NCBI GenBank assembly: GCA_041666685.1
Contig: JBAYGJ010000002.1
Span: forward strand, 1-55,788
DNA from: Patescibacteria group bacterium
GTDB taxonomy: Bacteria; Patescibacteriota; Patescibacteriia; UBA10025; JAHIVO01
Length of the DNA: 55,788 nucleotides
Reading direction: 5' to 3'
Made by a program: the position numbers and the translations under genes. The notes under the pieces are model-generated. The model was not told where the DNA came from. It saw only the letters and a program-made list of their open reading frames with translations, and did no database searches. This document shows, in pieces, positions 19,554-47,409 of the stretch. The stretch's first letter is position 1, and every line of letters begins with the position of its first letter.

Positions 19554-20320
19554 CTTTTAAAAATACACTCATGGCCGCAGCCCAAGCGGCAGGGAATATT
19601 CAGCTCCGCCGTTTCGGTAAGCTGACCAGACGGGACGTCCACCGCAAAGCCCATGATGAATTTGTGACGGATATCGATAAGCAGTCGGAACGGGTCATTA
19701 TTCGCATTATCCGGCGGCGTTTCCCTCAGCATGGGATTCTCTCAGAAGAGTCACCGGCACAGATGAAGACCGGGGATGAATATACCTGGATCATTGATCC
19801 CGTAGACGGTACGACGAATTATTCGATCGGTAATCCGCTTTTTGGCGTTTCCATCGGAGTTGTTGACCGGGACGGCCCTTTGGAGGGAATCGCGTATTTC
19901 CCGGCTTTACAGCGCTGGTACTACGCCAGGCGCGGCACTGGCGCGTATTTGAACGGTCGGAGAATCACGGTGGCACGCAATTGGTATGACCGGGCGATCC
20001 TGACACTCAGCTACCCACATTCCATCAGTGCATCCCATGGGGCCATGAATATTATCAACCGTTTGCGGCCGCAAGTAGCCAATATTCGCGTGTTCGGTTC
20101 GGCGTCATTTTCGTTCTGCTCCGTCGCGTCCGGGTCGGTTGATGCGATCATATTGGTCGGTCGGCAGCATCTCTGGGATGTGTACCCGAATATCCTTTTT
20201 GTCACCGAGGCTGGGGGCCGGGTAAGCGATTTTGCCGGACATCCCTGGACGCCGCGGGCATCAGGGCTGATCGCATCCACGCCAAAAATACACCATCAGT
20301 TGGTCAGGAGATTGCCATAA
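19550..20320 (+). CDS. inositol monophosphatase-family phosphatase
   Basis: LSEES.., WIIDPVDGTTNY and WD.. motifs of the IMPase/SuhB family. Confidence 0.85.
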   Translation: MTFKNTLMAAAQAAGNIQLRRFGKLTRRDVHRKAHDEFVTDIDKQSERVIIRIIRRRFPQHGILSEESPAQMKTGDEYTWIIDPVDGTTNYSIGNPLFGVSIGVVDRDGPLEGIAYFPALQRWYYARRGTGAYLNGRRITVARNWYDRAILTLSYPHSISASHGAMNIINRLRPQVANIRVFGSASFSFCSVASGSVDAIILVGRQHLWDVYPNILFVTEAGGRVSDFAGHPWTPRASGLIASTPKIHHQLVRRLP

Positions 20321-20408
20321 TATAATTATGCATACCCGAAAACCTGTGGTCTGTTTTTTGTGCCGTCCCTCAATCAGTTCGGGACCGCACGTATTTGATT
20401 TCATGTAT

Positions 20409-20492
20409 TGCCGCCGGTCGGAATCGAACCGACACGGCCTTGCGGCCAACGGATTTTAAGTCCGTCGCGTATACCAGTTCCGCCACGGCGGC
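20409..20492 (-). tRNA. tRNA-Leu (anticodon TAA), long variable arm, no encoded CCA
   Basis: Reverse complement: GCCGCCG..ACGGA-CTTAAAA-TCCGT-GGCCGCAAGGCCGT-GTCGG-TTCGATT-CCGAC-CGGCGGC-A. Confidence 0.9.
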
Positions 20493-20951
20493 CTACGGTT
20501 GTATTATATCAAATAAAACGATTCCTAGCGCTATGGCCACGTTCAGCGATTCCTTCTGGCCATGCATGGGGATATCGATCACTACATCGCATTTTTTTAA
20601 TAACGTGTCTGGCAGTCCCCTGACTTCGGCCCCGACAATGAGGGCAAGTGGAAATTTTTTCTTCCGCGTGAAATATGGGGTACTTTTTTTTGATTGTTCC
20701 AGGGCAACTAGCTCGTACTTTTTGGCGTTCAATTCTTTCAGAACATCGGCTGTCCTCGGACGTTTTTCAAACGGTACGAAGGCCGTCGCACCGAGGGCCA
20801 CTTTGTCGATTTTTGGGTGCGGCGGGGCAGGGGTTATGCCGCACAAATAGATCTTTTTCACGCCAGCGGCGTCTGCGGTACGGAATATGGCGCCAACGTT
20901 AAATCGGCTCCTGACGTTATGGAGTATAAGGACAACGTCTTGGGTATGCAT
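20493..20951 (-). CDS. SpoU/TrmH-family RNA 2'-O-methyltransferase
   Basis: HNVRSRFNVGAIFRTADAAG and LIVGAEVRGL..IPMHG..ESLNVA motifs. Start set at ATG 20951, because the longer ORF reads through the GC-rich repeat element. Confidence 0.8.
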   Translation of the reverse strand: MHTQDVVLILHNVRSRFNVGAIFRTADAAGVKKIYLCGITPAPPHPKIDKVALGATAFVPFEKRPRTADVLKELNAKKYELVALEQSKKSTPYFTRKKKFPLALIVGAEVRGLPDTLLKKCDVVIDIPMHGQKESLNVAIALGIVLFDIIQP

Positions 20952-20963
20952 ATTGTTTGATAA

Positions 20964-21116
20964 AGCGGGGAACGGCCCGCCTCGACTCGCATTGTTCGTC
21001 GACGCGAGGCGGGGACTTCTTCTCCCCCAATCTCGTCGCAAGCCTCCTCGATTTCCTCCGAAGCCTGTGGCCCTCGCTTCAACTCCTTCGGAGCGCTCGG
21101 GTCCGCTTCGAATCCG
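20964..21116 (-). repeat. GC-rich hairpin element carrying a 12-nt copy of the tRNA-Gly(GCC) 3' end
   Basis: 20964-20975 (agcggggaacgg) is identical to 21176-21187. It is followed by the stems CCCGCCTCG/CGAGGCGGG (20976-21013) and CTCCGAAG/CTTCGGAG (21056-21093), and a T-loop-like TTCGAA at about 21107. Confidence 0.5.
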
Positions 21117-21172
21117 TTAATTATTAAGGCTACCGTACTGATTGCGAGTATTTGATATTAATTAATGTTCGC

Positions 21173-21247
21173 TGGAGCGGGGAACGGGACTCGAACCCGC
21201 GACCTCTTCCTTGGCAAGGAAGCGTTCTACCACTGAACTACCCCCGC
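21173..21247 (-). tRNA. tRNA-Gly (anticodon GCC), CCA encoded
   Basis: Reverse complement: GCGGGGG-TA-GTTC-AGTGGTA-GAAC-G-CTTCC-TTGCCAA-GGAAG-AGGTC-GCGGG-TTCGAGT-CCCGT-TCCCCGC-T-CCA. Confidence 0.9.
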
Positions 21248-21391
21248 ATTTATTATGAAGGGACACCTTCGGTTTACCTTCATCTCATCCTTTCCCTCAA
21301 AGGGATGCCTTGCCCGGCGTGAAGCCGAGGCTTGGCATGATGATTTCAAGTACTGTCAGAATGTCAAAATAATCATTTGTTGTCAATACAC

Positions 21392-21483
21392 TGGAGGCGT
21401 GAGCGGGAATTCTTCTCGTTCCTCGAAGCCGGCCGCCCTTCGCTTTATCACCTTCGGTGCGCTCTGGTCGGCTGCAATTCCCG
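21392..21483 (-). repeat. tRNA-Cys 3'-end copy (with CCA) whose T-loop holds a ~62-nt insert
   Basis: 21395-21411 is 17/17 identical to 21503-21519 and is preceded by tgg (CCA), which the intact gene lacks. CGGGAATT (21404-21411) and AATTCCCG (21476-21483) close a hairpin around a GC-rich insert containing cccttcgc. Confidence 0.65.
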
Positions 21484-21502
21484 TATATTTATTAAGGTGA
21501 CT

Positions 21503-21574
21503 AGGCGTGAGCGGGAATTGCACCCGCGTATAGAGGTTTTGCAGACCTCTGCCTTACTACTTGGCTATCACGCC
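21503..21574 (-). tRNA. tRNA-Cys (anticodon GCA), no encoded CCA
   Basis: Reverse complement: GGCGTGA-TA-GCCA..GGC-A-GAGGT-CTGCAAA-ACCTC-TATAC-GCGGG-TGCAATT-CCCGC-TCACGCC-T. The U73 discriminator and A13/A22 mismatch are typical of tRNA-Cys. Confidence 0.85.
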
Positions 21575-21578
21575 TTAA

Positions 21579-21643
21579 AGAGGTGGTTTTGTCCCGCATT
21601 CGTGGCGGGGCAGACCTCTGCCTTACCACTTGGCAACGTAGCC
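21579..21643 (-). pseudogene. tRNA-Cys-like 5' two-thirds with a different acceptor strand and a hairpin inserted in the anticodon loop
   Basis: 21610-21643 matches the D arm and anticodon-stem region of the intact gene (21541-21574), but the acceptor is GGCTACG instead of GGCGTGA. After CTGC a 19-nt hairpin (CCCGC-cacgaat-GCGGG, 21593-21609) interrupts the anticodon. There is no T arm or 3' strand. Confidence 0.6.
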
Positions 21644-21741
21644 ATTAGGGCGTATAGATATGGTATCAATCTGGAGGTGTTTTTTCAAGGGTTGGCCAAA
21701 AACAAACCCCGCTCATAACTGGGCGGGGCTTGCTGGTTGTT

Positions 21742-22239
21742 TTATAGAATTTCCATTTTGACGTGCCTCACGCCCCATTGTTTCGCCAATTCGCGGGTCG
21801 GCATCCAAATGTCAGCCCTTGTACTGAATCTGGCAGCCATCCGGTCTTCGACGATGAAGATTTTATCTCCAAATTGGTCAGGAAACCGTACTTTTGTCCC
21901 AATTGGCAGGAAATTTGCGGCAATAATCCCGTCACGTACCTGGGTGCCCGAGGCAGTGGTAAACGGCGTACTGCCGCACTGGTCAACCGTCGATGAATAG
22001 GCGGTTACGGTTAACGTGAGTACCTTTTTTGCGGCCGGTTTCGGACGATCAGGGATTTCCGGAAGATGCATGACGGCGGCCGGGGCGATTTGGACGGCGT
22101 TAGTTTGTTCGATAGCCGTTATCGGCTCGGCGGTTGATTGCGCCAGGGCTAAATGCGGGAAAGAAAATTCAAAACTAAAAATTGAGAGGACGATTATTGT
22201 TATGTATTTGATTTTTCTGAGGATAATTCGCTTGATCAT
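21742..22239 (-). CDS. secreted 3D-domain (RlpA/MltA-like double-psi barrel) protein
   Basis: Signal peptide, then LTVTAYSS..DQCGSTP..TASG..GIIAAN..PIGTKV.. ..VEDRMAARF..DIWM, typical of the 3D domain. Confidence 0.75.
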   Translation of the reverse strand: MIKRIILRKIKYITIIVLSIFSFEFSFPHLALAQSTAEPITAIEQTNAVQIAPAAVMHLPEIPDRPKPAAKKVLTLTVTAYSSTVDQCGSTPFTTASGTQVRDGIIAANFLPIGTKVRFPDQFGDKIFIVEDRMAARFSTRADIWMPTRELAKQWGVRHVKMEIL

Positions 22240-22337
22240 ACGGTTCGGTTAATAGTCTTTTGCTAGATTGCCCAATATTAGCAATTAATTGTTAAATATT
22301 CCATAAATTTAGCTAACATTGGCTACAATGTAGGTAT

Positions 22338-22363
22338 CAAAAAACACCCTATCACAAGGGTGC
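22338..22363 (-). terminator. rho-independent terminator downstream of ddl
   Basis: On the minus strand: CACCCT-tgtgat-AGGGTG followed by T6. Confidence 0.7.
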
Positions 22364-22425
22364 TTTTGATGGCCTATCTTAGCAGACCTGGGGATTATGT
22401 CAAGTGTGAAGGGTCGGGCTGATCG

Positions 22426-23442
22426 TTATCGTGTATGCGCCAATTCAATCAGCCTGGATAGTAATTTTTGATATGGGATACCACTGGCTTGCCACATTTT
22501 GGGGTACATGGAGATGTCGGCGAAGCCGGGCAGCGTGTTTATCTCGTTTAAGTATATTTTGCCGGTCTTTTTCACCAGGAAGTCCACCCGCGCTAACCCT
22601 TCGCAATTTGCCAAACGGTAAGCATCACGGGCTAATATTTTAATCTCGTCCAGGATTTTTTTAGGCAGTTGTGCCGGAATTTGCGGGTGGCTTCGCGAGT
22701 CGAAATATTTATCGTCATAATCGTAAAATTCGTGTGAGGTGACAATACGGCCGGGTATAGCAACTTTGAAGTTTTTTATTGAATTACCTGATACCGCAAC
22801 TTCTATTTCATAGCAGTTTTCAACTGATTCTTCGATAATTACCTTTACGTCATATGCGCGGGCGAATTTGATTGCCTGGGCCAGCTTTTTCTTATCCTTC
22901 ACTTTGGTGATGCCGACCGATGATCCAGTGCAGGCCGGTTTTACAAAAACAGGAAATTTTAGCTGTAACGCCTGGCTAAGACTTTTCTTGATTTCTTTTG
23001 TGGCGTGACGTTTGTAATCAATAATAACAAACTTCGGTTTTGGTAGGCCGTGGTATTTCATCAGTTCGTTGAATATCCCTTTATCCAAGCACAATGACGA
23101 TGAAAGGACGTCCGCACCGACAAATGGGATATTGAGCATACGGAACATGCCTTGGATGGTGCCGTCTTCGCCGCCAATGCCGTGCATAACCGGAAAAGCC
23201 ACGTCGATCTGACGGCTGAGGGTATTCAGGTCGGCTGGCTTCAGTCGGCCAGTCCGCTTGTTTTCAATATGGGCGATGATGCCTGTACCAGTCCAAAACT
23301 TTCCTTTCTTATCAATAAAAAATTCACGCACGCGGAAATGCTTGCGGTCAACGGCGGCAATAACGTTTTTGGCTGACATGAGCGATACCTCATGTTCCGG
23401 AGACTGTCCGCCGAAGAATATGCCGACCGTAGTTTTTTTCAT
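22426..23442 (-). CDS. ddl: D-alanine--D-alanine ligase
   Basis: VGIFFGGQSPEHEVS.., HGIGGEDGTIQG, ATP-grasp core, EINTLPGF. Confidence 0.93.
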   Translation of the reverse strand: MKKTTVGIFFGGQSPEHEVSLMSAKNVIAAVDRKHFRVREFFIDKKGKFWTGTGIIAHIENKRTGRLKPADLNTLSRQIDVAFPVMHGIGGEDGTIQGMFRMLNIPFVGADVLSSSLCLDKGIFNELMKYHGLPKPKFVIIDYKRHATKEIKKSLSQALQLKFPVFVKPACTGSSVGITKVKDKKKLAQAIKFARAYDVKVIIEESVENCYEIEVAVSGNSIKNFKVAIPGRIVTSHEFYDYDDKYFDSRSHPQIPAQLPKKILDEIKILARDAYRLANCEGLARVDFLVKKTGKIYLNEINTLPGFADISMYPKMWQASGIPYQKLLSRLIELAHTR

Positions 23443-23451
23443 TGTGAGTAA

Positions 23452-23580
23452 TTAAAGCTCTTCTTCAGAAATTACTTTAACGTCATTTTTTTCAGCAGTT
23501 CGATTACTTTTTTCATTTGGCTTGCTCATGCCGTCGTATCTGCAATAAACCCCTAACAAGCATGCGCTGCACAGTTTCAT
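23452..23580 (-). pseudogene. 42-aa remnant of a DUF523 (YbbK-like) gene
   Basis: MKLCSACLLGVYCRYDG matches the conserved N-terminus of ~150-aa DUF523 proteins. The ORF stops after 42 codons with unrelated sequence. Confidence 0.4.
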
Positions 23581-23589
23581 ATTTTGAAA

Positions 23590-23601
23590 AGCGGGTAGGG
23601 A
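23590..23601 (-). repeat. 12-nt copy of the tRNA-Gly(TCC) 3' end (outer 3' piece)
   Basis: agcgggtaggga is identical to 23620-23631. Confidence 0.6.
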
Positions 23602-23606
23602 CTTAT

Positions 23607-23704
23607 TTAAGTCACATTGAGCGGGTAGGGAGAATCGAACTCCCGGCAACAGGTTGGAAACCTGTGGTATTACCACTATACGATACCCGCTCAATGTGAC
23701 TTAA
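23607..23704. repeat. perfect 21-nt inverted repeat framing the intact tRNA-Gly(TCC)
   Basis: ttaagtcacattgagcgggta (23607-23627) is the exact reverse complement of tacccgctcaatgtgacttaa (23684-23704). This extends the 7-bp acceptor stem by 14 bp. Confidence 0.9.
23620..23690 (-). tRNA. tRNA-Gly (anticodon TCC), no encoded CCA
   Basis: Reverse complement: GCGGGTA-TC-GTAT-AGTGGTA-ATAC-C-ACAGG-TTTCCAA-CCTGT-TGCC-GGGAG-TTCGATT-CTCCC-TACCCGC-T. Confidence 0.9.
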
Positions 23705-23782
23705 TTGTTGTAAATATGTTTGTGAATCGCCCGTGAACCACTGAATGGTTCAGGGCGTCATGTACCCTTGAGTGGTACATAA

Positions 23783-23837
23783 CGAACTCCCGGCAACAGG
23801 TTGGAAACCTGTGGTATTGCCACTATACGATACCCGC
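23783..23837 (-). pseudogene. 55-nt 5' copy of tRNA-Gly(TCC), positions 1-55, truncated in the T-loop (outer 5' piece)
   Basis: 54/55 identical to 23636-23690 (single g/a difference at 23819 vs 23672). The copy ends at ..GGGAGTTCG. Confidence 0.85.
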
Positions 23838-23987
23838 ATTAATGCTAAGGATGCCAAAGAAAATTATTAAGGTCAATATAGTAATTTCCTTGCCTCATTG
23901 TAACCTCAACTCCTTCTTTTTTCAAGTGCAGGGTTCGGTGTCGTCGGGTTCTTTTGTATTTATCATAAACAGGATACAATAGAACAT

Positions 23988-24608
23988 ATGGCACAACCAA
24001 CCGTGTCAATCATCCTCCCGACATATAACCGGGCCGAATACCTTGATCGATGCATTTCCTCGGTTGAGCGACAAACGTTTCCTGATTGGGAACTGATTAT
24101 TGTAGATGACGGCAGCACCGACGGCAGCAAGAAAATAATCGATGCACATATCCGGCAAAGCTCCCGGATACGGTATACGTTCCAAAACAATCAGGGAGCG
24201 GCGTACGCGGTTAATGCGGGGATCGGGATGGCTCGGGGCACATACCTGGCTTTCATCGACAGTGATGATGAATATTCGCCTGCCCACCTCAAGCGCCATG
24301 TCGAGTATTTACGCGCTCATCCGGCAGTAGACATGGTGCATGGCAGTTTCTCGGTCATCGGCAGCCCGTATGTGAAAGACAAAAATGATATGACGAAAAT
24401 GATCCACCTATCGAAATGCGCGGTATGCGGGACGTTTTTCGGCAAACGCCATGTGTTTACCCAACTGCACGGATTCAAGCCCCTGTACTATAGTAAGGAT
24501 TCGGAATTTTTTGAGCGTGCAGAAAAGGAATTCTCCCTGGTCAGGCTGGACTACGGGACATATATTTACCACCGGGATACGCCCGGCAGCAAGACAAACA
24601 TCGTATAA
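23988..24608 (+). CDS. family-2 glycosyltransferase
   Basis: VSIILPTYNRAEYL.., IIVDDGSTDGS, FIDSDDEY (DXD) motifs. Confidence 0.85.
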   Translation: MAQPTVSIILPTYNRAEYLDRCISSVERQTFPDWELIIVDDGSTDGSKKIIDAHIRQSSRIRYTFQNNQGAAYAVNAGIGMARGTYLAFIDSDDEYSPAHLKRHVEYLRAHPAVDMVHGSFSVIGSPYVKDKNDMTKMIHLSKCAVCGTFFGKRHVFTQLHGFKPLYYSKDSEFFERAEKEFSLVRLDYGTYIYHRDTPGSKTNIV

Positions 24609-30275: not shown

Positions 30276-30420
30276 TGGTCGGGGTGCCCGGGACCCTTCG
30301 ACTTCGCTCAGGGCAGGCTTGTCACCGCCATCCTGTCATCTGACAGGATAGGTCCCGGCGGACCCCCCCGACGATACCGTCGGAAATGATTCCAGCCCTC
30401 CCCAGAGACTGGTCCGCTGA
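30276..30420 (-). repeat. tRNA-Pro 3'-end copy (with CCA) joined to a ~130-nt hairpin-rich insert
   Basis: 30276-30291 is 16/16 identical to 30449-30464, with a similar 3' flank. CCGGGACC (30288-30295) pairs with GGTCCCGG (30351-30358) around the motif cccttcgacttcgctcaggg (30294-30313) and the hairpin ATCCTGTCA/TGACAGGAT. Confidence 0.7.
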
Positions 30421-32360: not shown

Positions 32361-32435
32361 TTGTAGTGGTTGTATCCACTCTATAATAACATGGCTAATT
32401 TATTCTTGGAATGGGATGGTGCCGAGGGCCAGGAT

Positions 32436-32930
32436 TTACTTCAATTTGTTTAGTTGAGTTTTATCCTGGCTGAATTTTACCTCTAAATCAGTAAATAATT
32501 CCAAAACTCCATCTTTAAGAAGCCCCCGAACAATTTGAACCGCAAAATTTGAATCCTGCGCAAGATCGTCAATGCGCACTTTTCGGGCCCGCATTAACCA
32601 GGGCAGATCCTCCCTTGTAGCTCCGAAATAAATATTTGGAATTTTGGCCTGAAAAATTGCCGCACCACACATGATGCAGGGTTCATGGGTTGAGTAAATT
32701 GTACAATCGCTTAAATTATGCGTCCGGAGTATTGTGCAGGCTTTCCGAAGTGCCTGCATTTCTGCGTGTGCAGTCGCGTCACCTTTTGCAATATTTTCTG
32801 CGTGGCCTTTTGCAATAACTTTGCCATTGCACGTTATTACTGCACCAAACGGAAAATCGCCAGCTAGCTTCGCTTTCTTAGCTTCCTGGATGGCAAGGCG
32901 CATGAACGTGTGGTGTAGATTTTCCCTCAT
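32436..32930 (-). CDS. CDA-fold nucleoside/tRNA-adenosine deaminase (TadA or guanine-deaminase type)
   Basis: HAEMQAL and HEPCIMCGAAI zinc-binding motifs. 164 aa. Confidence 0.75.
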   Translation of the reverse strand: MRENLHHTFMRLAIQEAKKAKLAGDFPFGAVITCNGKVIAKGHAENIAKGDATAHAEMQALRKACTILRTHNLSDCTIYSTHEPCIMCGAAIFQAKIPNIYFGATREDLPWLMRARKVRIDDLAQDSNFAVQIVRGLLKDGVLELFTDLEVKFSQDKTQLNKLK

Positions 32931-33019
32931 GCAGTAAGAGTTTGTATTAATGAAAAGCTACCAGATATGCTCAATGGGGCGTTGACAGCTCTTTAAGTCC
33001 GGAGTTTTCCGCACATCTT

Positions 33020-33057
33020 CCGAGGGCCACCTACGGTCGGACTGGCGACTCAAGGAT
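33020..33057 (-). repeat. tRNA-Phe 3'-half copy with a substituted T-loop
   Basis: ccgagggcca (33020-29), cggactggcgac (33038-49) and caaggat (33051-57) match 33084-93, 33098-109 and 33111-17. The T-loop gaat is replaced by cctacggt. Confidence 0.65.
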
Positions 33058-33081
33058 GAAAAGGGTAATTCTGCTCCCAAA

Positions 33082-33153
33082 TGCCGAGGGCCAGAATCGG
33101 ACTGGCGACGCAAGGATTTTCAGTCCTTCGCTCTACCACTGAGCTACCTCGGC
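33082..33153 (-). tRNA. tRNA-Phe (anticodon GAA), no encoded CCA
   Basis: Reverse complement: GCCGAGG-TA-GCTC-AGTGGTA-GAGC-G-AAGGA-CTGAAAA-TCCTT-GCGTC-GCCAG-TCCGATT-CTGGC-CCTCGGC-A. Confidence 0.9.
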
Positions 33154-33163
33154 ATGTGACCGT

Positions 33164-33261
33164 CCTCGGCATTTGGGAGTAATTAGCACCATTCGCTCTT
33201 CCGGGGCGCTTCTATGGGCGCGCCCGCTCTGCTTGTGCAGAGCCCACTTCGCTACCTCGGC
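33164..33261 (-). repeat. two upstream copies of the tRNA-Phe 5' acceptor strand separated by GC hairpins
   Basis: cctcggc (33164-70) plus atttgggag (33171-79) is the exact complement of the tRNA 3' strand plus trailer, giving a 16-bp alternative helix. gctacctcggc (33251-61) is 11/11 identical to 33143-53 and is followed on the minus strand by the hairpins GCTCTGCACAAGCAGAGC and GGGCGCGCCC. Confidence 0.65.
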
Positions 33262-33300
33262 GGATTCACCGGCATAAGCGAGTATTATGATACGTGTCCA

Positions 33301-33377
33301 TGGTGGGGACGAGAGGAGTTGAACCTCTGACCTTCACAATGTCAATGTGACGCTCTAACCAACTGAGCTACGTCCCC
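33301..33377 (-). tRNA. tRNA-Val (anticodon GAC), CCA encoded
   Basis: Reverse complement: GGGGACG-TA-GCTC-AGTTGGTTA-GAGC-G-TCACA-TTGACAT-TGTGA-AGGTC-AGAGG-TTCAACT-CCTCT-CGTCCCC-A-CCA. Confidence 0.9.
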
Positions 33378-33383
33378 GTGGTC

Positions 33384-33466
33384 TGGTGGGCGACCCAGGA
33401 GTTGCACCCTTCGACTTCGCCACCTCGATTTCACTCGGTGGCTTCGCTCAGGGTAGGCCTGGGACC
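33384..33466 (-). repeat. tRNA-Ile 3'-third copy (with full CCA) carrying a ~50-nt insert between the T-stem 5' strand and the T-loop
   Basis: 33385-33408 is 24/24 identical to 33518-33541, and cctgggacc (33458-66) equals 33540-48. The insert carries a split cccttcgacttcgc / cttcgctcaggg motif around the hairpin GCCACC..GGTGGC. Confidence 0.8.
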
Positions 33467-33519
33467 GCTCAAGTATCCAATAACAAATTTCTTCAGCATG
33501 AATGCTATTATTCCCTCGG

Positions 33520-33593
33520 TGGGCGACCCAGGAGTTGCACCTGGGACCTCGTCATTATCAGTGACGCGCTCTAACTACCTGAGCTAGTCGCCC
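33520..33593 (-). tRNA. tRNA-Ile (anticodon GAT); only CC of CCA encoded
   Basis: Reverse complement: GGGCGAC-TA-GCTC-AGGTAGTTA-GAGC-G-CGTCA-CTGATAA-TGACG-AGGTC-CCAGG-TGCAACT-CCTGG-GTCGCCC-A. Leader TTCCCTCAGT and trailer ACCGAGGGAA add 10 bp (one A/C mismatch) to the acceptor helix. Confidence 0.9.
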
Positions 33594-33623
33594 ACTGAGG
33601 GAACAAGTATGGCTACCTGCTTG

Positions 33624-33655
33624 CCCCGAGCGAAGTCGAGGGGAGCTAGTCGCCC
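33624..33655 (-). repeat. 13-nt tRNA-Ile 5' copy fused to the shared GC motif
   Basis: gagctagtcgccc (33643-55) is identical to 33581-93. The adjacent ccccgagcgaagtcgagggg (33624-43) is the shared motif in the orientation complementary to the copy inside the 3' fragment. Confidence 0.7.
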
Positions 33656-33756
33656 ATGCCTTTTTTCCAACAAAAAAACTACAACCTGATGGTACTATTG
33701 TAGTTTATCATACATAAAAAATCAAATGACTGGAGGGATGCTTATAAACCCCTTAG

Positions 33757-33787
33757 CAACCAGCAGGTGGTAAAGAATACGAATCAA
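33757..33787 (-). promoter_or_regulatory. 3' strand of the 16S rRNA processing stem
   Basis: caaccagcaggtggtaaagaatacgaatcaa is nearly perfectly complementary to 35389-35418 on the other side of the 16S gene. Confidence 0.7.
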
Positions 33788-33851
33788 CTCAATGATGTAT
33801 ATCTATACGTACGTCAGAGACGCACGAATATCGACAAATTGGTTACTCCTT

Positions 33852-35347
<1,496 letters not shown>

Positions 35348-35388
35348 TAGTTGGAGTTTTTAACTAGAAAAACTCCCAAAAAAAGGAA

Positions 35389-45753: not shown

Positions 45754-45861
45754 GGGACGGGTAGGGATCCCTCAACATTGCCACTTCGACTTCGCTCGTG
45801 GGCTACGTTCGGGATATTTTTTCTGCCGAAATTTTTTCGCTCAGGAGGAACTTGAAAATTC

Positions 45862-45927: not shown

Positions 45928-47409
45928 TTAATCCCAGAGAGGAGTGCCACAGTATTCGCAAGTCAGAATCTTGGAATCTGCGCCCGGCTGGCCGGTAAAG
46001 AGAAAGTTCGGTTTCGCTTCACGATCATTGTTCGTGATGCAGGCATTGTTTGTGCAGTGCACATTTTGCGAAATACCGATAGGGGCACGGTACCGCCTTT
46101 TGAGAATTGTACTGTTGCCCGGCAGGTAATTGATCGTTACGCCGGGGTAGAGGGTTTGGATTGTGGCGCCGGCGAATTCGGGCAGCTCGTAGTCGTTGAG
46201 GAGCAGAACGTCTTTCTTGCCGCTCGGATGCCGGCTTGATTTGACGTAACGGACGGACTGTCCGGAGATGCCTCCCGGTAAACACTGGAGTAGTTTGAGC
46301 AGACGCTCGATATTATCGGCCTGTCCCGGCGGGATATGGTCGATAACTGTCCCGCATTTGATCGGCTGGAAATGTTTGAGTGGCTTGCCGGTCACGACGG
46401 TTTTTTCCGTCTGGTCAATGAAGAACGGCTGTTGGACAGGGTGCAGGTCGATCGGCACATACTGTGTTTCGCACAGCATCGCGATGATAGCCATCCGAGC
46501 AGGTATGCCGTATTCGGCCTGCTGGAAGGCGATGATCCGCTTATCGAGGGAAACCTCGGAGTCGATTTCATCCACTCGCGGGAGCGGATGCATGACGCGC
46601 ACATCGGGCTTCCAACTATCCAGCACATCCTGATTGATAATGAAACGGTGGCGGACCGATTCGATGTAGCGTTTTTCTTCTGTCGACATGCGTTCTAATT
46701 GGAACCTGGTGACATAGACGATGTCGCAGTCTGCCAGGATATCCAATGAATCCCCTTCGGTTACGTTTGCGAGGCTGAGTTTGTACCGATCCGGAAGTTC
46801 GAACCCTTTGGGCGCGGCGAATTTGAATTTCATGCCTTCGCGTCGGCAAAATGCCTGGAGTAAGGTATGAGCTGTCCGGCCTTTGCTGGGGTCGCCCATA
46901 ATACCGAGGGTGAAATTGTCCAGGCGGCCAAGTGTGCGTTTGATGGTCAGCATATCCAAGACAGTCTGGGTGGGATGCCATTGCCGCCCATCGCCGCAGT
47001 TGATGATATTGACCGGTCCGGGGTTGATGACTGAGAAATCGGTCACGTATTCCTGACATCTTTTGGCGATATAGAGCGGCTCACCTTCGATGCTGGTGCG
47101 GATAGCGACTATTCGTGTATTGCGCCCGACATGCATGCGCAGGTCGTCAGTGAAACTCTCCCCTTTACCCATAGATGATTGATTGGGATCGGCGAACCGA
47201 GTCACCTTCATTCCCATATTATCACCTGCGGTTTCGGTAGCTAGCATTGTCCGAGTGCTCCGCTCCCGAAAGAGTGTGAGTAGTCGGTAATGCGGATACT
47301 GCCGGTTGCAGGTATTCCTCTGCGCCCATGGGATCATAGATTCCGCCTGACCTACGACGTAATCTATGGAGTTGTTGCCCATGAAGCTGTCCATGTTGAT
47401 GACGTGCAT
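45928..47409 (-). CDS. pyrB: aspartate carbamoyltransferase, catalytic chain fused to the regulatory chain (PyrB-PyrI)
   Basis: N-terminal ~310 aa carry the STRTR-type (ERSTRT), HPTQ and HPLPRV motifs. The C-terminal ~150 aa carry PyrI features (GTVIDHIPPG.., zinc cluster C..NNAC..CEYC). Confidence 0.85.
   Translation of the reverse strand: MHVINMDSFMGNNSIDYVVGQAESMIPWAQRNTCNRQYPHYRLLTLFRERSTRTMLATETAGDNMGMKVTRFADPNQSSMGKGESFTDDLRMHVGRNTRIVAIRTSIEGEPLYIAKRCQEYVTDFSVINPGPVNIINCGDGRQWHPTQTVLDMLTIKRTLGRLDNFTLGIMGDPSKGRTAHTLLQAFCRREGMKFKFAAPKGFELPDRYKLSLANVTEGDSLDILADCDIVYVTRFQLERMSTEEKRYIESVRHRFIINQDVLDSWKPDVRVMHPLPRVDEIDSEVSLDKRIIAFQQAEYGIPARMAIIAMLCETQYVPIDLHPVQQPFFIDQTEKTVVTGKPLKHFQPIKCGTVIDHIPPGQADNIERLLKLLQCLPGGISGQSVRYVKSSRHPSGKKDVLLLNDYELPEFAGATIQTLYPGVTINYLPGNSTILKRRYRAPIGISQNVHCTNNACITNNDREAKPNFLFTGQPGADSKILTCEYCGTPLWD

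Follow-up and report, generated by a model that had tools for sequence, protein, structure and literature searches.

Probable relics of gene turnover on both sides of a tRNA-Cys gene in a Patescibacteria genome

On the minus strand of a 55.8 kb stretch of a metagenome-assembled Patescibacteria (candidate phyla radiation, CPR) genome, an intact tRNA-Cys(GCA) gene is flanked on one side by the 5′ part of a second tRNA-Cys and on the other by a 3′ part of its own sequence. Our analysis suggests that these flanking pieces are most likely not working parts of a tRNA but relics of turnover at one tRNA-Cys locus, a reading to which we give a probability of about three in four and under which we call them relics below. 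The same process has marked 8 of the 10 tRNA genes of the window, as we name the whole 55.8 kb stretch to which the results on this genome refer. The feature is real and its core, a set of pseudogene relics, is ordinary; it lies within an unusual lineage-wide pattern, in which the density and the regularity of the relics stand out.

Two alleles at one tRNA-Cys locus

Genes for tRNAs were called with ARAGORN and Rfam, partial copies were searched with blastn, and the open reading frames (ORFs, about 50) of the window were compared with Pfam. A D-Ala-D-Ala ligase gene, two genes upstream of the Cys locus, assigns the window to Patescibacteria; L002, L003 and L004 are the nearest species representatives (72-78% identity, gene order kept), and three further relatives, L112, L113 and L114, were found through homologues of the adjacent 3D-domain protein. 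Along the minus strand, the locus runs from the terminator of the 3D-domain protein gene through a promoter, the 5′ piece, TTAA, the intact tRNA-Cys and a spacer to the 3′ piece:

21660..21688, minus strand: promoter-like site TTGAAA-17-TACCAT with TG, ahead of relic and live gene, which would drive the whole unit
21579..21643, minus strand: A′, 5′ relic of 65 nt, positions 1-44 of a type-A tRNA-Cys, with GGCTACG acceptor and G18-type D loop, no T arm and no 3′ acceptor strand
21591..21609, minus strand: 19-nt GC-rich hairpin insert CCCGCCACGAATGCGGGAC within the anticodon, the excision of which restores CTGCAAA exactly
21575..21578, minus strand: TTAA junction between relic and live gene (the A′-B junction of L002 has AATTTAAAC instead)
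21503..21574, minus strand: live tRNA-Cys(GCA), type B, found by ARAGORN and Rfam (65 bits), with GGCGTGA/TCACGCC, U73, and A18 with G55
21488..21502, minus strand: 15-nt spacer or filler AGTCACCTTAATAAA between live gene and 3′ relic
21476..21487, minus strand: start of the 3′ relic, TATACGGGAATT, equal to type-B positions 44-60 minus four bases (C50; TGC of the T loop)
21412..21475, minus strand: 64-nt T-loop insert of the 3′ relic, AATT on either side, core GAGCG-NNN-CGAAGG
21392..21411, minus strand: native type-B 3′ end AATTCCCGCTCACGCCT with CCA, then native flank GTGTATTGACA
21053..21130, minus strand: the downstream module in a second copy, with tRNA-Gly(GCC) on one side and a Gly 3′-end-like relic (20975-20960) on the other

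Written out, the 5′ piece reads GGCTACG TT GCCA AGTGGTA AGGC A GAGGT CTGC CCCGCCACGAATGCGGGAC AAA ACC ACCTC T. A first-pass annotation, made from the sequence alone, had placed the intact gene at 21503-21574 and, at 21579-21643, a second Cys 5′ piece with a GGCTACG instead of a GGCGTGA acceptor and an anticodon broken after CTGC by a 19-nt hairpin plus three extra nucleotides; these descriptions stand, the three nucleotides being an additional ACC. It had called the D arm and the anticodon stem identical, which is nearly so (the 25-nt block 21634-21610 has 96% identity to the intact gene, blastn E=7e-7), but one D-loop base is different, G18 in the piece and A18 in the intact gene. The absence of a T arm and a 3′ strand was likewise correct for the T arm and the acceptor, but the piece extends to position 44 and has the 3′ strand of its anticodon stem.

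The 3′ piece as a whole (21487-21392) corresponds to the 3′ third of the gene and begins at position 44 with TATACGGG (21487-21480); its earlier description as the last 17 nt plus CCA was exact for the repeat and for the CCA, which only this copy carries, but made the copy too short. The 17-nt repeat (21411-21395) is 100% identical to 21519-21503, i.e., positions 57-73 of the gene (E=2e-4), and 91 nt separate the two. A 12-nt exact match at most 700 nt from a tRNA, which is our strict rule for a relic, is expected 0.005 times per tRNA, and chance is therefore excluded for the Cys repeats. The live tRNA-Cys has no encoded CCA, AG coming next, and the CCA-plus-flank junction of the 3′ relic recurs in L003, L112 and L004. 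Because the 17 nt, the CCA and the flank match the ends of the clean type-B genes of L003 and L112, we take the 3′ piece to be the original 3′ end of B, displaced by an insertion or duplication of 108 nt. The insert in its T loop had been given as about 62 nt closed by CGGGAATT/AATTCCCG; the closure is seen in the predicted fold, and the length is 64 nt. This insert is homologous to the module at 21130-21053 (nhmmer E=1e-5), its variant core GAGCG-NNN-CGAAGG has 2 matches against 0.05 expected, and the 15-nt spacer has CCTTAATAA in common with the module downstream of tRNA-Gly(GCC).

Among these genomes, tRNA-Cys(GCA) exists as two very dissimilar alleles, type A (GGCCACG...G18/U55...CGTGGCC) and type B (GGCGTGA...A18/G55...TCACGCC), and both occur at one position, with the same promoter before and the same CCA-plus-flank after. 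L004 has a clean type A (GGCCACG...AGTGGTA...GGCGGTTCGATTCCGCC CGTGGCC T CCA), while L003 and L112 have a clean type B with encoded CCA, 100% identical to the live gene of the window, and no relic. In L114, a live B follows a 5′ relic of type A that covers positions 1-21 and has an insert in its D loop; L002 carries in succession B′, A′ (positions 1-41), B′ and a live type A, and its A′ holds, at the anticodon site used in the window, a 77-nt insert that starts with TCCCGCC and ends with GCGGGA; L113 carries B′ and then A′, which holds an insert homologous to that of L002 (z=10.7), the D arm being corrupted. The truncation of A′ thus differs, at position 21 in L114, 41 in L002 and 44 in the window. 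In L003, L004 and L112, an identical promoter directly precedes the clean Cys gene, and in L113 it stands before the first relic. Compared with the live type-A genes of relatives, A′ of the window shows C4T, A9T, a triplication of ACC and the insert; type B is invariant in three genomes, with one compensatory anticodon-stem change in L114, and is, judging from this sequence comparison, under selection as a tRNA. Given clean type-A genes in relatives together with truncated A relics, we read the 5′ piece of the window as a relic of allele A, and since the 5′ relic is of type A and the 3′ relic of type B, they are not halves of one resident gene and imply at least two separate events. The decaying paralogue proposed as one option in the first-pass annotation was therefore right as to decay and imprecise as to kind, the 5′ piece being a relic of the alternative allele and the 3′ copy the displaced end of the live gene. 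It had also overlooked that most tRNA genes of the window show the same phenomenon.

The other option was a split or trans-spliced tRNA, in which a separately encoded 3′ half would complete the 5′ piece, with the hairpin as an intron or a joining helix. It is true that the insert is precise, that its removal gives back the anticodon loop, and that L002 and L113 also have a type-A 5′ piece interrupted by an insert at this very site. However, an intact tRNA-Cys(GCA) lies 4 nt downstream of the 5′ piece, the truncation points vary among genomes, further disruptive inserts are found, and L004 has the GGCYACG acceptor type, at the same promoter, in a normal gene without interruption. In L002 the same fragment is accompanied by an intact type-A gene, L003 and L112 do without the fragment, and the 5′ relic has gained C4T and A9T while B has not. 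As the annotation had noted, the window holds no complementary 3′ strand, a search with CGTAGCC-N-CCA giving only chance-level one-mismatch matches, and no splicing endonuclease or ligase is seen among its ORFs; to our knowledge, no tRNA splicing endonuclease is known in bacteria. We consider a split tRNA highly improbable. The intron-aware tRNA search that had been suggested along with it yielded no genuine intron-containing gene, as the intron mode of ARAGORN joins relics to live copies, a warning for annotation in general, since intron-aware finders fuse relic and live gene into false intron-containing genes.

Two kinds of intron were considered and rejected. A group I intron has a core of about 200 nt or more, against an insert of 19 nt here and 77-106 nt in relatives, and no Rfam intron matched at E up to 5; with gathering as well as permissive thresholds, Rfam found only tRNAs over 20300-24000, and no intron, ribozyme or transfer-messenger RNA (tmRNA). 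A functional tRNA intron of the archaeal type would agree with the precision of the insertion, but the host copy is without T arm and 3′ strand, and all interrupted copies seen are truncated or corrupted.

The possibility that A and B are strain variants concatenated by the metagenome assembler deserves mention, as the window is metagenome-assembled and both alleles occur in related populations. Nevertheless, the identical A′-B junction was recovered in the Logan assembly of run SRR6484324, comparable relics at the Cys and/or Gly(TCC) loci are found in five assemblies from different projects (window, L002, L003, L113, L114), and the inserts are not strain variants, so that an artefact of this sort is hardly credible. 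A metagenome scan with the 3D-domain protein returned distant relatives only (39-71% identity) and caught no recent presence/absence polymorphism, and neither the type-B Cys nor the type-II Gly(TCC) sequence has an exact match in IMG/VR that would point to a phage origin of the live alleles.

Two further observations concern this locus. The type-B tRNA-Cys (21503-21574) and tRNA-Ile(GAT) (33518-33593) both combine A18 (UAGU instead of UGGU) with G55 (UGCAA instead of UUCRA), as though both partners of the conserved G18-U55 elbow contact had changed together; the usual G18/U55 is retained in type-A Cys. In addition, a 145-nt spacer between tRNA-Cys and tRNA-Gly(GCC) (window 21255-21390, minus strand; L003 9600-9744) is kept in the window and in L003 and missing in L004. 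It begins with a TTGACA promoter-like site and holds GCCAAG[hairpin]CAAGGCA, which resembles the D arm of tRNA-Cys with a D-loop hairpin and may be a further, older Cys relic.

Partial copies and nested genes at other tRNA loci

By blastn, co-oriented partial copies lie 60-650 nt away from 8 of the 10 tRNA genes of the window (Lys, Arg, Gly-GCC, Cys, Gly-TCC, Pro, Phe and Ile). Under the strict rule the count is 7/10, against 3/65 in L004, distant relatives and unrelated bacteria (Fisher p=6e-6); there are none in L004 and several in L002 and L003. Besides those of the Cys locus, the relics are the following:

1498-1480: tRNA-Lys 3′ end with CCA, the live Lys copy being without CCA
2116-2036: tRNA-Arg 5′ relic with two D-loop hairpins
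20975-20960: tRNA-Gly(GCC) 3′ relic
23837-23783 and 23601-23590, minus strand: tRNA-Gly(TCC) relics, positions 1-55 and 3′ end, respectively
30291-30276: tRNA-Pro 3′ relic
32432-32420: native 3′ end with CCA of tRNA-Phe, past the deaminase gene (tRNA-Phe has both 5′ and 3′ relics)
33655-33619 and 33408-33385: tRNA-Ile relics, a 5′ piece with a D-loop hairpin and a 3′ piece with CCA

In the typical layout, the encoded CCA is gone from the live copy and a distal 3′ relic holds the CCA and the native flank. At all loci with both relics (7/7), the 3′ relic takes up 0-26 nt after the point at which the 5′ relic leaves off, and the two never overlap in extent, which gives the impression that an intact copy had landed inside the resident gene. 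Such nesting is seen directly in two relatives. The native tRNA-Pro of L002 has the sequence of the live gene in L004 and the window; it is broken into positions 1-26 and 41-73, between which lies a different intact tRNA-Pro, itself flanked by a 9-bp inverted repeat that lengthens its acceptor stem. Similarly, the native tRNA-Val of L003 is split at 18/19, and the different intact tRNA-Val inside it is enclosed by CCCCGCGTCTTC...GAAGATGCGGGG.

At tRNA-Phe, a gene of the dCMP/cytidine-deaminase family (32436-32930; region 32420-33081) separates the live gene from its displaced native 3′ end and CCA. This gene is not at this position in L002, L003 or L004 and looks like a gene-sized insertion. 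Together with the Cys locus it recalls the attachment (att) site repeats left by integrases, and one may ask whether a tyrosine-integrase element entered at the T loop or 3′ end, brought a new 3′ end and was then almost entirely deleted, leaving attL and attR 108 nt apart. In favour of this, the 17-nt direct repeat runs from T loop to discriminator, as an att repeat should, the intact proximal copy has a foreign or CCA-less 3′ end, and the distal 3′ fragment, starting in the T loop, keeps CCA and native flank. Unlike in integrase att sites, however, no integrase is encoded among the ORFs of the window and no element body exists, 91 nt lying between the repeats and the whole amounting to 108 nt; the distal copy reaches back to position 44, past the exact 17-nt repeat; such integration yields neither 5′ relics nor whole tRNAs nested in resident genes; and at each of 8 of 10 loci, an element would have had to integrate and then be deleted almost completely. 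We hold an integration scar to be unlikely.

The tRNA-Gly(TCC) locus (23590-23837, minus strand) comprises a near-identical 5′ relic, two hairpins, a live CCA-less gene and, last, a 3′ relic of 12 nt; the live gene sits in a perfect 14-bp extension of the acceptor stem, TTAAGTCACATTGA / TCAATGTGACTTAA. The same layout is found in L002 and L003 with a stem of different sequence, four pairs being changed on both sides, and a tRNA that is 100% identical. This preserved stem with its compensatory changes is one argument that the pieces act as a leader or trailer RNA, kept to aid processing as scaffolds for RNase P or RNase III or to regulate the live tRNA. From the position of the promoter, the relics would be co-transcribed with the live gene; they persist across diverged genomes, and RNase III is encoded in the window. 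On the other hand, the Cys locus of L003, L112 and L004 has no relic at all, relics differ freely in their extent and in their inserts, and predicted folds fare poorly against shuffled sequences, that of the 5′ relic being not clearly better (z=-1.7) and that of the 64-nt insert no better (z=0.16). A functional leader thus appears quite improbable to us, and we retain turnover as the preferred reading.

Several features of the surrounding DNA may be added. Relic stretches beside Lys, Arg, Gly(GCC), Pro, Phe and Ile lie at 1480-1498, 2036-2116, 20960-20975, 30276-30312, 32420-32432, 33020-33057, 33385-33460 and 33619-33655. Between tRNA-Gly(TCC) and ddl, a short minus-strand ORF (23445-23575) starts with MKLCSACLLGVYCRYDG and is 42 residues long; L002 has a similar stretch, and the ORF may be what is left of a truncated gene. 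After the 16S rRNA gene come tRNA-Ile, tRNA-Val and tRNA-Phe (33081-35350), with no tRNA-Ala and no 23S rRNA, so that the rRNA genes appear to be unlinked. Finally, a single 493-aa ORF at 45928-47409 contains the OTCace_N and OTCace domains (catalytic) as well as PyrI and PyrI_C (regulatory) of aspartate carbamoyltransferase and appears from its domain content to be a PyrB-PyrI fusion.

Hairpin inserts and palindromic repeats

The GC-rich hairpin inserts are confined to dead tRNA copies and are precise, their excision restoring the tRNA; the sites used are the D loop (13/14), the anticodon (34-36) and the T loop. Some inserts are shared between different tRNAs. A 24-nt insert at D-loop 13/14 of the Ile relic of the window has 22 of 24 bases in common with that of the Cys-B relic of L113, and the same insert occurs, reversed, within the T-loop insert of the Pro relic of the window. 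The 19-nt hairpin of the Cys locus is probably the shortened form of an insert that measures 77-106 nt at this site in L002 and L113, the termini CCCGCCA...GCGGGAC being common to all three, although its homology to the longer inserts is not significant alone (z=1.6). Homology among the anticodon-loop inserts of different tRNAs is weak (z about 3), and the inserts that are orthologous between L002 and L003 at Gly(TCC) align at their termini only; the data therefore do not establish one transposing element family for the anticodon site.

The core CCYGAGCGAAGTCGARGG occurs three times in the window, in both orientations (30295-30312, 33625-33642, 45783-45800), against 0.01 expected. It has no Rfam family, and it resembles repeats that yield spurious ORFs in soil and groundwater genomes. 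Its presence in more than 120 IMG/VR contigs, some with 2-4 copies and often inside longer palindromes, makes it a member of a ubiquitous palindromic repeat class. In viral contigs (loci L115-L194), only 2 of 96 core copies lie within 300 nt of a tRNA, i.e., the core is not tRNA-linked there. Perfect GC-rich hairpins of the window are about threefold enriched within 300 nt of tRNAs (9/31 in 8.6% of the window).

The repeats are therefore comparable to repetitive extragenic palindromic (REP) sequences, miniature inverted-repeat transposable elements (MITEs) and the intervening sequences of rRNA, being short, GC-rich, imperfect palindromes in many copies, nested, in both orientations and also intergenic; the Cys hairpin itself is too short to assign. 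They differ from REP and MITE repeats in their precise preference for the loops of tRNA genes, of which we know no description, and no cognate transposase, whether REP-associated tyrosine transposase (RAYT) or IS200-type, was seen among the Pfam matches of the window's ORFs. In the literature searched, we found no account of tRNA relics or hairpin inserts in tRNA genes of Patescibacteria, nor any mention of the core motif.

From these data it is tempting to consider a structure-directed insertion at tRNA genes, not described before, in this lineage. Small palindromic elements would enter the D, anticodon and T loops with an accuracy of one base pair, and some would carry in their stem a complete CCA-less replacement tRNA, killing and replacing the resident gene in one step and so turning over the alleles. 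We regard this as a tentative possibility, doubtful on balance.

A proposed course of turnover and its meaning

The turnover that we favour might proceed as follows. Intact copies would come by insertion into the resident gene or by local duplication within it, with filler DNA at the junctions, and only outcomes leaving one working copy would survive. The dead pieces would then take up small GC-rich hairpin repeats, precisely in single-stranded loops, and undergo deletions. Transcription from the conserved promoter would pass through the relic, no terminator lying between the 5′ relic and the live tRNA-Cys, and RNase P would free the 5′ end of the live tRNA. As the encoded CCA has been displaced, 3′ trimming and enzymatic CCA addition would be needed, and the live CCA-less tRNA-Cys would depend on the CCA-adding enzyme after trimming.

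Some observations weigh against this proposal. The Cys locus requires at least two events and is less tidy than the nested cases of L002 and L003; relics last across genomes with 77-80% Ddl identity, a long time for junk in a small genome; and no recombinase, transposase or reverse transcriptase was found by Pfam among the window ORFs. Gene conversion or some function of the relics may be involved, and the rest of a genome of which 55.8 kb are covered here may hold a CGTAGCC 3′ half or a complete type-A gene.

One close parallel in organization comes from plastids, for which the literature searched also describes related tRNA duplications. Pseudogene repeats of plastid trnF(GAA) in Brassicaceae and other plants form tandem arrays that are ascribed to illegitimate recombination around tRNA structure. 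Like them, the arrays described here consist of co-oriented partial copies of the 5′ and 3′ domains beside one live gene, with number and extent varying among relatives. Unlike them, live gene and relic can be different alleles here, whole replacement genes are nested in resident genes, the loops receive precise hairpin inserts, and many isoacceptors are hit at once in a small-genome bacterium.

Archaea offer a second comparison. In Caldiarchaeum, a 5′ fragment of one tRNA-Thr type stands upstream of another type, with a recombinase-bearing element (PMC3293823), which is comparable to a 5′ fragment of one Cys allele upstream of a different live allele. Thermoproteales have transposing tRNA introns at non-canonical positions (work cited in PMC10714607); these introns and the present inserts are alike in being short and structured, in lying precisely in D, anticodon and T loops, and in the recurrence of similar inserts at the same position of different tRNAs. 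In contrast to Archaea, where interrupted genes are functional and spliced by an endonuclease, the interrupted copies seen here are all truncated and an uninterrupted copy is present, and neither an endonuclease nor a recombinase was found among the window ORFs.

Genes for tRNAs are regarded as among the most stable of bacterial genes. In this lineage, isoacceptor alleles replace one another at fixed loci, and the replaced copies mark the sites of DNA entry, namely the three loops that are also the sites of non-canonical introns and splits in Archaea. If structure-directed insertion were true, it would be a bacterial counterpart, at the level of DNA, of archaeal tRNA intron transposition and tRNA gene splitting, and would provide a concrete route to interrupted and split tRNA genes; and should the insertion process be active, these bacteria would offer a tractable model for the origin of interrupted tRNA genes.

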